Assembly: GCA_048320885.1 (NCBI GenBank)
Contig: JBLWFJ010000001.1
Location: forward strand, 1,349,642 to 1,413,641
DNA length: 64,000 bases
Direction of reading: 5' to 3'
Origin: Nannocystaceae bacterium ST9
Lineage (GTDB): Bacteria > Myxococcota_A > Polyangia > Nannocystales > Nannocystaceae
The position numbers and the translations under genes are program-made. The stretch's first letter is position 1, and each line of letters starts with the position of its first letter. Of this stretch, positions 11,577-11,780 are shown piece by piece. The notes below the pieces were generated by a model. That model was not told where the DNA came from. It did not search any database and worked only from the letters and a program-made list of their open reading frames with translations.

Positions 11577-11592
11577 TGCCATCGAAGTGCCA
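11577..11592 (-). promoter_or_regulatory. sigma-54-type promoter (-24/-12) upstream of small protein A
   Basis: The minus strand reads TGGCACT-TCGA-TGGCA versus the consensus TGGCACG-N4-TTGCW. GG and GC have exact spacing. Predicted start near 11566, giving a ~75-nt leader to ATG 11490. Confidence 0.5.
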
Positions 11593-11690
11593 TCCGAGGG
11601 TATGGCTGGTCTCTCGACCAAATCGCCGGTGCCCATGCCTGCATTGCTACTGGCCCAAAGTACGCGATTCGCCGAGTCGCATGTTCGCGG

Positions 11691-11780
11691 AATGGTCGGT
11701 CGAATGTCGGTCGAATGTCGGTCGATTGGTCGGTCGATTGGTCGTTCGAACATCACGGTTCGAACATCACGATTCGACTC
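11691..11780. repeat. two adjacent short tandem-repeat arrays in the divergent intergenic region
   Basis: AATG(G)TCGGTCG appears about 4-5 times (11691-11745), then TTCGAACATCACGR twice plus a partial TTCGAC (11746-11780). They lie 100-190 bp upstream of the sigma-54-type -24 element on the minus strand. Confidence 0.8.

Follow-up and report, generated by a model that had tools for sequence, protein, structure and literature searches.

A sigma-54-like element, tandem repeat arrays and a candidate sigma-70-type promoter upstream of a conserved small-protein operon in Nannocystaceae bacterium ST9

The stretch of 64,000 nucleotides (nt) analysed here (hereafter the window) comes from Nannocystaceae bacterium ST9, a myxobacterium, and contains a divergent intergenic region of 533 base pairs (bp) that separates an acyl-CoA dehydrogenase gene from a tightly packed five-gene operon beginning with two genes for small proteins. 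The GC content, which is 69% in the window as a whole, drops to 52% to 60% in this region. Within it lie two repeat arrays, a motif resembling the -24/-12 promoters recognized by sigma-54 and two candidate promoters of the sigma-70 type, one toward each transcription unit:

11535 to 11576, minus strand: candidate sigma-70-type promoter of the operon, recognized by its consensus match and as the positional counterpart of a block conserved in orthologous loci.
11577 to 11594, minus strand: sigma-54-like element TGGCAC-N5-TGGCA with its GATGGCA pair (consensus match, 12.7 bits with an approximate matrix).
11690 to 11750, unstranded: 11/12-nt tandem array (Tandem Repeats Finder: period 12, 5.2 copies, 90% matches, score 87, unit GAATGGTCGGTC).
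11744 to 11777, unstranded: 14-nt tandem array (Tandem Repeats Finder: period 14, 2.4 copies, 95% matches, score 61, unit GTTCGAACATCACG).
11785 to 11813, plus strand: weak candidate sigma-70-type promoter toward the acyl-CoA dehydrogenase gene, CTGACG-N17-TATTGT, matching the consensus at only 8 of 12 positions.

The region is most likely the shared control region of the acyl-CoA dehydrogenase gene and the operon, and an ordinary one of known kind. The first-pass annotation had read it as a sigma-54 promoter of the operon whose upstream repeats bind an activator or another regulator, with simple slippage as a fallback for the repeats. We favor, with middling confidence, a different reading in which the operon is transcribed from a conserved sigma-70-type promoter, the arrays are young products of slippage and the sigma-54-like element has no sigma-54 function. 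Judged by its position and by comparison with related loci, the core promoter itself is most likely of the ordinary sigma-70 type.

This reading is carried by comparison with ten independent orthologous loci (L001, L003, L005, L009, L011, L012, L015 from Pseudenhygromyxa sp. WMMC2535, L016, L017, and L018), which were reached through homologues of the operon's DUF5819 protein (44% to 58% identical) and of its first small protein. Gene order is constant wherever the contig is long enough, consisting of two overlapping small genes, a CarboxypepD_reg gene of approximately 870 amino acids (aa), a DUF5819 gene and a gene of approximately 310 to 330 aa. This arrangement was noted for L001, L003, L005, L009, L011, L012, L015, and L016. 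Nine of the ten loci (all except L003, which is ambiguous) carry an A/T-rich tract, (C)TTGNNN, a spacer of 16 or 17 nt and TAT(G/C/A)(A/C)T, located 40 to 95 nt upstream of the first small gene. Their -35 hexamers are TTGATT, TTGCTT, TTGCCT, TTGCAT (three loci) and TTGCAC (three loci), and their -10 hexamers are TATGAT, TATCTT, TATGCT or TATCCT. The near-invariant columns of the alignment include the C and the first T of CTTG as well as the T, A, T and final T of the -10 hexamer. A direct repeat, G(T/A/C)CAT-N3-G(T/A/C)CAT, is present in the promoter spacer of L009 (1666 to 1681), L018, L015, L011, L012, and L001 (for example, GTCATTTCGTCAT), and may be an operator overlapping the promoter in these relatives.

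At the same position the window has an A-rich tract, ATGAAAAATTGTC (11576 to 11564), and a -35 hexamer, TTGAAG (11563 to 11558), followed by either TATATT (11542 to 11537; spacer of 15 nt, 9 of 12 consensus positions) or TATTGT (11540 to 11535; spacer of 17 nt, 8 of 12). The A-rich tract, the TTGNNN and TATnnT hexamers and a location shared with nine operons liken it to housekeeping sigma-70-type promoters with an A/T-rich tract, from which it differs in its 15-nt spacer or, with the 17-nt option, in the weaker TATTGT. A standard promoter scan gave no call here because it requires a spacer of 16 to 18 nt together with 9 of 12 matches. If this promoter is used, transcription would start near 11530 and give a leader of approximately 40 nt that carries AGGGAG as its ribosome-binding site; the sigma-54-like motif would then be an ST9-specific direct repeat of GATGGCA at about -47 to -64, just upstream of the promoter. 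The leaders of the window (11509 to 11495, minus strand) and L005 (6319 to 6342) have ACCTCCGAAG in common just upstream of the ribosome-binding site, and its CCTCC could pair with a GGAG-type Shine-Dalgarno sequence and mask it.

The sigma-54-like element and the arrays have no comparable conservation. In the 900 bp upstream of nine of the ten orthologous operons no sigma-54 element was found, the best scores being 8.2, 5.1, 6.1, 7.6, 2.2, 3.7, 5.5, 5.4, and 4.5 bits, and the element of the window aligns with unconserved sequence in the orthologs. None of the ten has a tandem array of comparable score in its 600-bp upstream region. A matrix of the repeat motif and counts of shared 7-mers gave a signal in L009 only and weakly in L012, and in L011 and L015, where LiaF-like genes come before the small genes, no sigma-54 sites were found upstream of those LiaF-like genes. 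The first-pass annotation had named absence from orthologous loci as evidence against its promoter, and the comparison came out largely that way.

The motif itself was accurately described. The minus strand reads TGGCACTTCGATGGCA at 11592 to 11577 (within the longer stretch GGATGGCACTTCGATGGCAATGAAAAATTGTCTTGAAG), with GG at 11591 to 11590 and GC at 11579 to 11578, spaced as in TGGCACG-N4-TTGCW, and its end lies 87 bp upstream of the ATG at 11490 that opens a 96-aa open reading frame (ORF). It is on the correct strand for the operon, has the GG-N10-GC geometry and predicts a start at approximately 11566 with a leader of 76 nt. GATGGCA occurs twice here (11594 to 11588 and 11583 to 11577), so that the halves of the motif also form an exact 7-nt direct repeat with a period of 11 bp. 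This repeat takes in two bases beyond the sigma-54 consensus, and a TGGCA repeat with an 11-bp period yields the GG-N10-GC geometry automatically.

By score, the motif is ordinary at the scale of the window and notable for its location. With one mismatch or fewer, TGGCACN5TTGCW occurs twice in the window versus 0.83 expected, and 18 of 100 shuffled sequences reach two occurrences. A scan with a position weight matrix, which the first-pass annotation had suggested as a check, ranked the motif second in the window at 12.7 bits; the matrix was built from the published consensus mrNrYTGGCACG-N4-TTGCWNNw, so that its scores are approximate. Thirty random 64-kilobase (kb) sequences from a first-order Markov model averaged 2.3 sites scoring 12 bits or more, and a site above 12.7 bits was present in 25 of them. 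The motif has a G at -14, a position that in 12 Myxococcus xanthus promoters is T ten times, C twice and never G (PMC9765219, Table 1). Together with the direct-repeat structure of its halves, this G weakens the sigma-54 reading.

The top-ranked site in the window, CTGGCACGAGCGATGCA (21620 to 21636, 16.7 bits), lies before kdpFAB, with a 34-aa ORF, kdpF and kdpA immediately downstream. Upstream of this site, at a distance of 44 bp, is a 17-nt tandem repeat with 2.4 copies, TCGCGATTCACAGGGCC (region 21538 to 21636, plus strand), and the gene for a KdpE-like OmpR-type regulator (20581 to 21519) adjoins it. KdpD is seemingly split into a kinase part (19445 to 20821) and a sensor part (25559 to 27292). 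To our knowledge, OmpR-type regulators of the KdpE kind work with sigma-70 and not with sigma-54, and the kdp site is either a false positive or part of an unusual kdp promoter. In L009 and L012, sigma-54-like sites of 12.6 bits also fall within coding sequence, in the HTTM-like genes. The kdp site and these intragenic sites show how readily such matches arise in DNA of this kind.

Both arrays were recovered 98 to 185 bp upstream of the sigma-54-like motif, as first described; relative to the sigma-70-type promoter of the operon they lie at about -160 to -247. On the operon strand they read CGTGATGTTCGAAC twice, GACCGACCAATC twice, GACCGACATTC twice and then GACCGACCATTC, and together they hold seven TCGA cores at spacings of 14, 14, 12, 12, 11, and 11 bp. 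Adjacent copies are identical in pairs along the whole unit (14+14, 12+12, and 11+11), and exact self-matching over 20 nt at period 11, 16 nt at period 12 and 14 nt at period 14 puts the arrays far beyond chance. They were seen in ST9 only among the 11 loci compared. Elsewhere in the window the array units find mismatched matches only, mostly intragenic and at or near the chance level.

Identity of neighboring copies over the full unit points to recent unit-wise slippage, since selection on contact positions would leave another pattern. The arrays are most likely young products of replication slippage and would represent a TCGA-core unit duplicated in tandem, recently and in ST9 only. The slippage fallback of the first-pass annotation fits them better than its preferred role as activator sites. 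Slippage arrays near promoters, which vary in copy number, share with these the head-to-tail arrangement, the identical neighbors, the restriction to one strain and the location in a control region, although units of 11 to 14 nt are longer than classical phase-variation repeats. Intergenic tandem arrays seem to be common in the ST9 genome; others that apparently lie between ORFs in the window are at 4155 to 4334 (21 nt, 8.6 copies, 93% matches), 59898 to 59926 (6 nt, 4.8 copies) and 62017 to 62061 (15 nt, 3.0 copies, 100% identical).

A coding reading of the repeat region was rejected. Two ORFs that run through it (11487 to 11756 on the minus strand and 11715 to 11933 on the plus strand) are low-complexity translations of the repeats, and none came from the coding screen based on third-position GC content (GC3). 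A LexA-type box was rejected, since CGAAC-N6-GTTCG is present but has a spacer of 6 instead of 4; the pattern simply follows from the duplication of a TTCGAA-containing unit. An Rfam scan of 10800 to 12100, with E values up to 1, found no RNA family.

Alternatively, the sigma-54-like element could be a working promoter, which we consider unlikely. RNA polymerase with sigma-54 would bind TGGCAC-N5-TGGCA and start at approximately 11566, activated through DNA looping by an enhancer-binding protein on the seven TCGA repeats. The conserved sigma-70-type promoter, which overlaps this predicted start, would then provide basal transcription as an additional promoter, unless the closed complex formed with sigma-54 blocks it.

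Several observations pull in this direction and count against the favored reading. Myxobacteria are rich in sigma-54 promoters and activators. Beyond its exact GG/GC spacing, the motif agrees with the consensus at 10 of the 12 specified positions (the mismatches being T at -20 and G at -14), which equals or exceeds most accepted M. xanthus sigma-54 promoters (PMC9765219, Table 1). It is intergenic and points toward the operon, and in a region of 533 bp, on one strand, only 0.018 such sites are expected (a rate of 3.4e-5 per position at intergenic composition). From the predicted sigma-54 start the arrays are 124 to 211 bp upstream, the classical enhancer distance. M. xanthus activators such as Nla28 use clusters of two to five short repeated half-sites (PMC9765219). 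The sigma-70-type promoter of the window is the least typical of the set, with its 15-nt spacer or weaker -10 hexamer, and lacks the G(N)CAT-N3-G(N)CAT spacer repeat carried by relatives, which could mean that control has shifted in ST9. Local alignment (blastn-short) detected no significant similarity between the intergenic DNA of the window and that of any ortholog, and the orthologs are distant; since their DUF5819 proteins are only 44% to 58% identical to that of ST9, non-conservation weakens the sigma-54 reading and does not refute it. The closest DUF5819 homologue is the one at 58%. Profile scans of two genome collections with DUF5819 and the second small protein yielded no relatives, and a metagenome scan yielded one short contig without usable upstream DNA; no close relative of ST9 was found in any collection searched.

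L009 has a comparable layout. This locus holds a sigma-54-like site of 13.0 bits, TTGGCTGTCCCATTGCA, at -264 from the ATG, in a position that is not homologous to that of the window element, and CAATCGAC, CATTCGAAC and CGTGATG lie approximately 130 to 165 bp upstream of it (L009 1346 to 1526). With 11 shared 7-mers, versus 6 in the next-best segment, this part of L009 has the highest word sharing with the arrays in its 7.6-kb locus. L009 was nevertheless not counted as an independent case of a sigma-54 promoter plus enhancer and was kept as a hint. One such site among ten loci has a probability of approximately 0.27 (an estimate from the rate of 3.4e-5), the blastn-short alignment was not significant, and a single palindrome, CATTCGAACGGTCGAATG, possibly the terminator of the gene upstream, accounts for much of the word sharing. 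The L009 comparison was also post hoc. The resemblance in layout is unexplained and is not statistically secure.

The first-pass annotation also pointed to two activators with a GAFTGA motif in the window, and both are present:

29165 to 30514, plus strand: FHA-type GAFTGA activator (family match).
33184 to 34521, minus strand: NtrC-type GAFTGA response regulator (family match).

Two encoded enhancer-binding proteins make it clear that the organism uses sigma-54. However, they are 18 to 22 kb from the motif, the array motif was not found near either of their genes, and nothing links them to the site. Among the genes with a Pfam or NCBIfam match between 692 and 21543 there is no enhancer-binding protein; the regulators there are a histidine kinase and the OmpR-type protein next to kdp. 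The rpoN signature, the RpoN-box motif, was not found in the window. A PtsN-like EIIA gene (34518 to 35000, minus strand) follows the NtrC-type activator gene, and a listed ORF of 605 aa (35025 to 36842, minus strand) has a C-terminal EIIA domain. An ORF within its span (35486 to 36697, minus strand) matches a CxxCxxCC domain, and gene calls there are doubtful. This neighborhood suggests a nitrogen-type phosphotransferase system linked to sigma-54 control.

Known sigma-54 systems with upstream activator sites, such as glnAp2 with NtrC and the targets of Nla28, resemble the region in their GG/GC spacing, in short repeats 100 to 200 bp upstream and in belonging to a phylum rich in enhancer-binding proteins. 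The region differs from them in the G at -14, in head-to-tail units of 11 to 14 nt in place of 8-bp half-sites, in array copies identical over their entire length and not just at contact positions, and in having no activator gene nearby. The proposal of a sigma-54 promoter is partly supported. Its sequence facts and geometry hold, whereas none of the tests run here spoke for the main claim: the score lies within chance for a window of 64 kb, the halves of the motif are equally well explained as an 11-bp direct repeat, and nine of ten orthologous operons lack the element and instead carry the sigma-70-type promoter.

A regulator other than an enhancer-binding protein might bind the arrays, and perhaps the GATGGCA pair, and act on a sigma-70-type promoter; we regard this as doubtful. 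Like response regulators of the OmpR/PhoB type, it would recognize head-to-tail repeats spaced by approximately one helical turn. Its target would be either the operon promoter, through GATGGCA at -47 to -64, or the promoter of the acyl-CoA dehydrogenase gene, with the arrays upstream of 11785 to 11813. The repeat periods of 11 to 14 bp are near one helical turn, so that phased binding sites are a possible role; any function of the arrays would lie in the regulation of one or other divergent promoter through a DNA-binding protein. Since the 14-nt array adjoins the plus-strand promoter candidate, ending 8 bp from its -35-like hexamer, the arrays could serve either transcription unit. AATAGTC is repeated with a 13-bp period at 11792 to 11811, in the AT-rich stretch of this candidate. 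Direct repeats in the array flanks (CGAGCGA, period 10; AATAGTC, period 13; GATGGCA, period 11) exceed the numbers in shuffled sequences, with 2 versus 0.15 expected (P 0.014) and 1 versus 0.08 (P 0.076). The 17-nt tandem repeat before kdp, beside the gene for the KdpE-like regulator, is a possible parallel.

OmpR/PhoB regulators bind direct repeats of 10 to 11 bp, and the arrays are like their operators (pho boxes) in having several head-to-tail copies of units of approximately 11 bp. They differ from pho boxes in that the distance to the operon promoter is too large for usual activation and the cognate regulator is only hypothetical; as far as we know, the array motif is unrelated to known OmpR/PhoB boxes. 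Aside from the weak matches in L009 and L012, no matching motif is enriched upstream of the orthologs, further unit copies are lacking in the window, the plus-strand promoter is a weak consensus match and no regulator gene lies beside the region. The full-length identity of the copy pairs again argues for recent duplication over selection on contact positions.

It is improbable that ST9 rewired a sigma-70-driven operon to sigma-54 by local tandem duplication alone, which would have required an 11-bp duplication of GATGGCA to create the -24/-12 element, slippage to expand a TCGA-core unit into a seven-site enhancer approximately 150 bp upstream and the loss of the spacer repeat and one spacer base from the ancestral promoter.

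The genes flanking the control region are as follows, given in operon order and ending with the divergent gene:

11200 to 11490, minus strand: small protein 1, 96 aa, first gene of the operon; signal peptide, hydrophobic segment, AQGYME.KN and C-terminal (D/E)Y(V/A)LN.
10889 to 11191, minus strand: small protein 2, 100 aa; signal peptide, W.ADK.YDLGKEVGKW.AGS and C-terminal DYLL(N/D).
8176 to 10866, minus strand: CarboxypepD_reg-repeat protein of approximately 870 to 896 aa (PF13620, E 1.7e-46).
7347 to 8165, minus strand: DUF5819 protein (PF19136).
6335 to 7405, minus strand: HTTM/SdpB-family-like membrane protein, last gene of the operon (TIGR04033, E 8.8e-26, below the curated cut-off).
12024 to 13232, plus strand: acyl-CoA dehydrogenase gene (Acyl-CoA_dh_N, _M, and _1 domains).

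The ORF of the CarboxypepD_reg protein is listed from a TTG at 10866, and an in-frame methionine opening MSKPEARTS lies approximately 70 nt downstream. The coordinates of the HTTM/SdpB-like gene are those of a stop-to-stop frame; its start is uncertain and falls near the end of the DUF5819 gene. Homologues of this membrane protein have a weak match to the HTTM family PF05090. A second DUF5819/HTTM-like pair and a 99-aa gene are present at some loci.

Small protein 1 (ACNOYE_05735, 100% identity) belongs to a family with a signal peptide, LPAIA.VA.GGL.GAF.LG.AQGYMEAKN and a C-terminal DYVLN, and small protein 2 to one with a signal peptide, A.YGW.ADK.YDLGKEVGKW.AGS and a C-terminal DYLLN. In both families the signal peptide is followed by acidic stretches and the C-terminus is DY(V/L)L(N/D), and their genes come first in the operon at every locus examined. 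For small protein 1, searching 5.8 billion proteins with the single sequence recovered nothing but the query, as if it were an orphan; synteny and a profile search found 14 members, so its orphan appearance is a sensitivity artefact of the single-sequence search. "Orphan" calls for small proteins that come from word-indexed searches are therefore not trustworthy.

For genome scanning, this locus is a warning that in DNA of 69% GC a near-consensus intergenic -24/-12 element with repeats at enhancer distance is insufficient for calling a sigma-54 promoter. Were the sigma-54 promoter real, an operon of exported small proteins and a vitamin-K-carboxylase-like pair would be under signal-dependent control, and this would be a case of regulatory turnover between related myxobacteria. 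If the rewiring had taken place, repeat expansion would have been caught in the act of generating a sigma-54 promoter and its enhancer. A more useful lead may be the operon itself. DUF5819 and HTTM proteins are predicted to form a complex resembling the vitamin-K-dependent carboxylase (bioRxiv 10.64898/2026.08.19.745780, a 2026 preprint), which makes the conserved small proteins candidate substrates of the DUF5819/HTTM pair.

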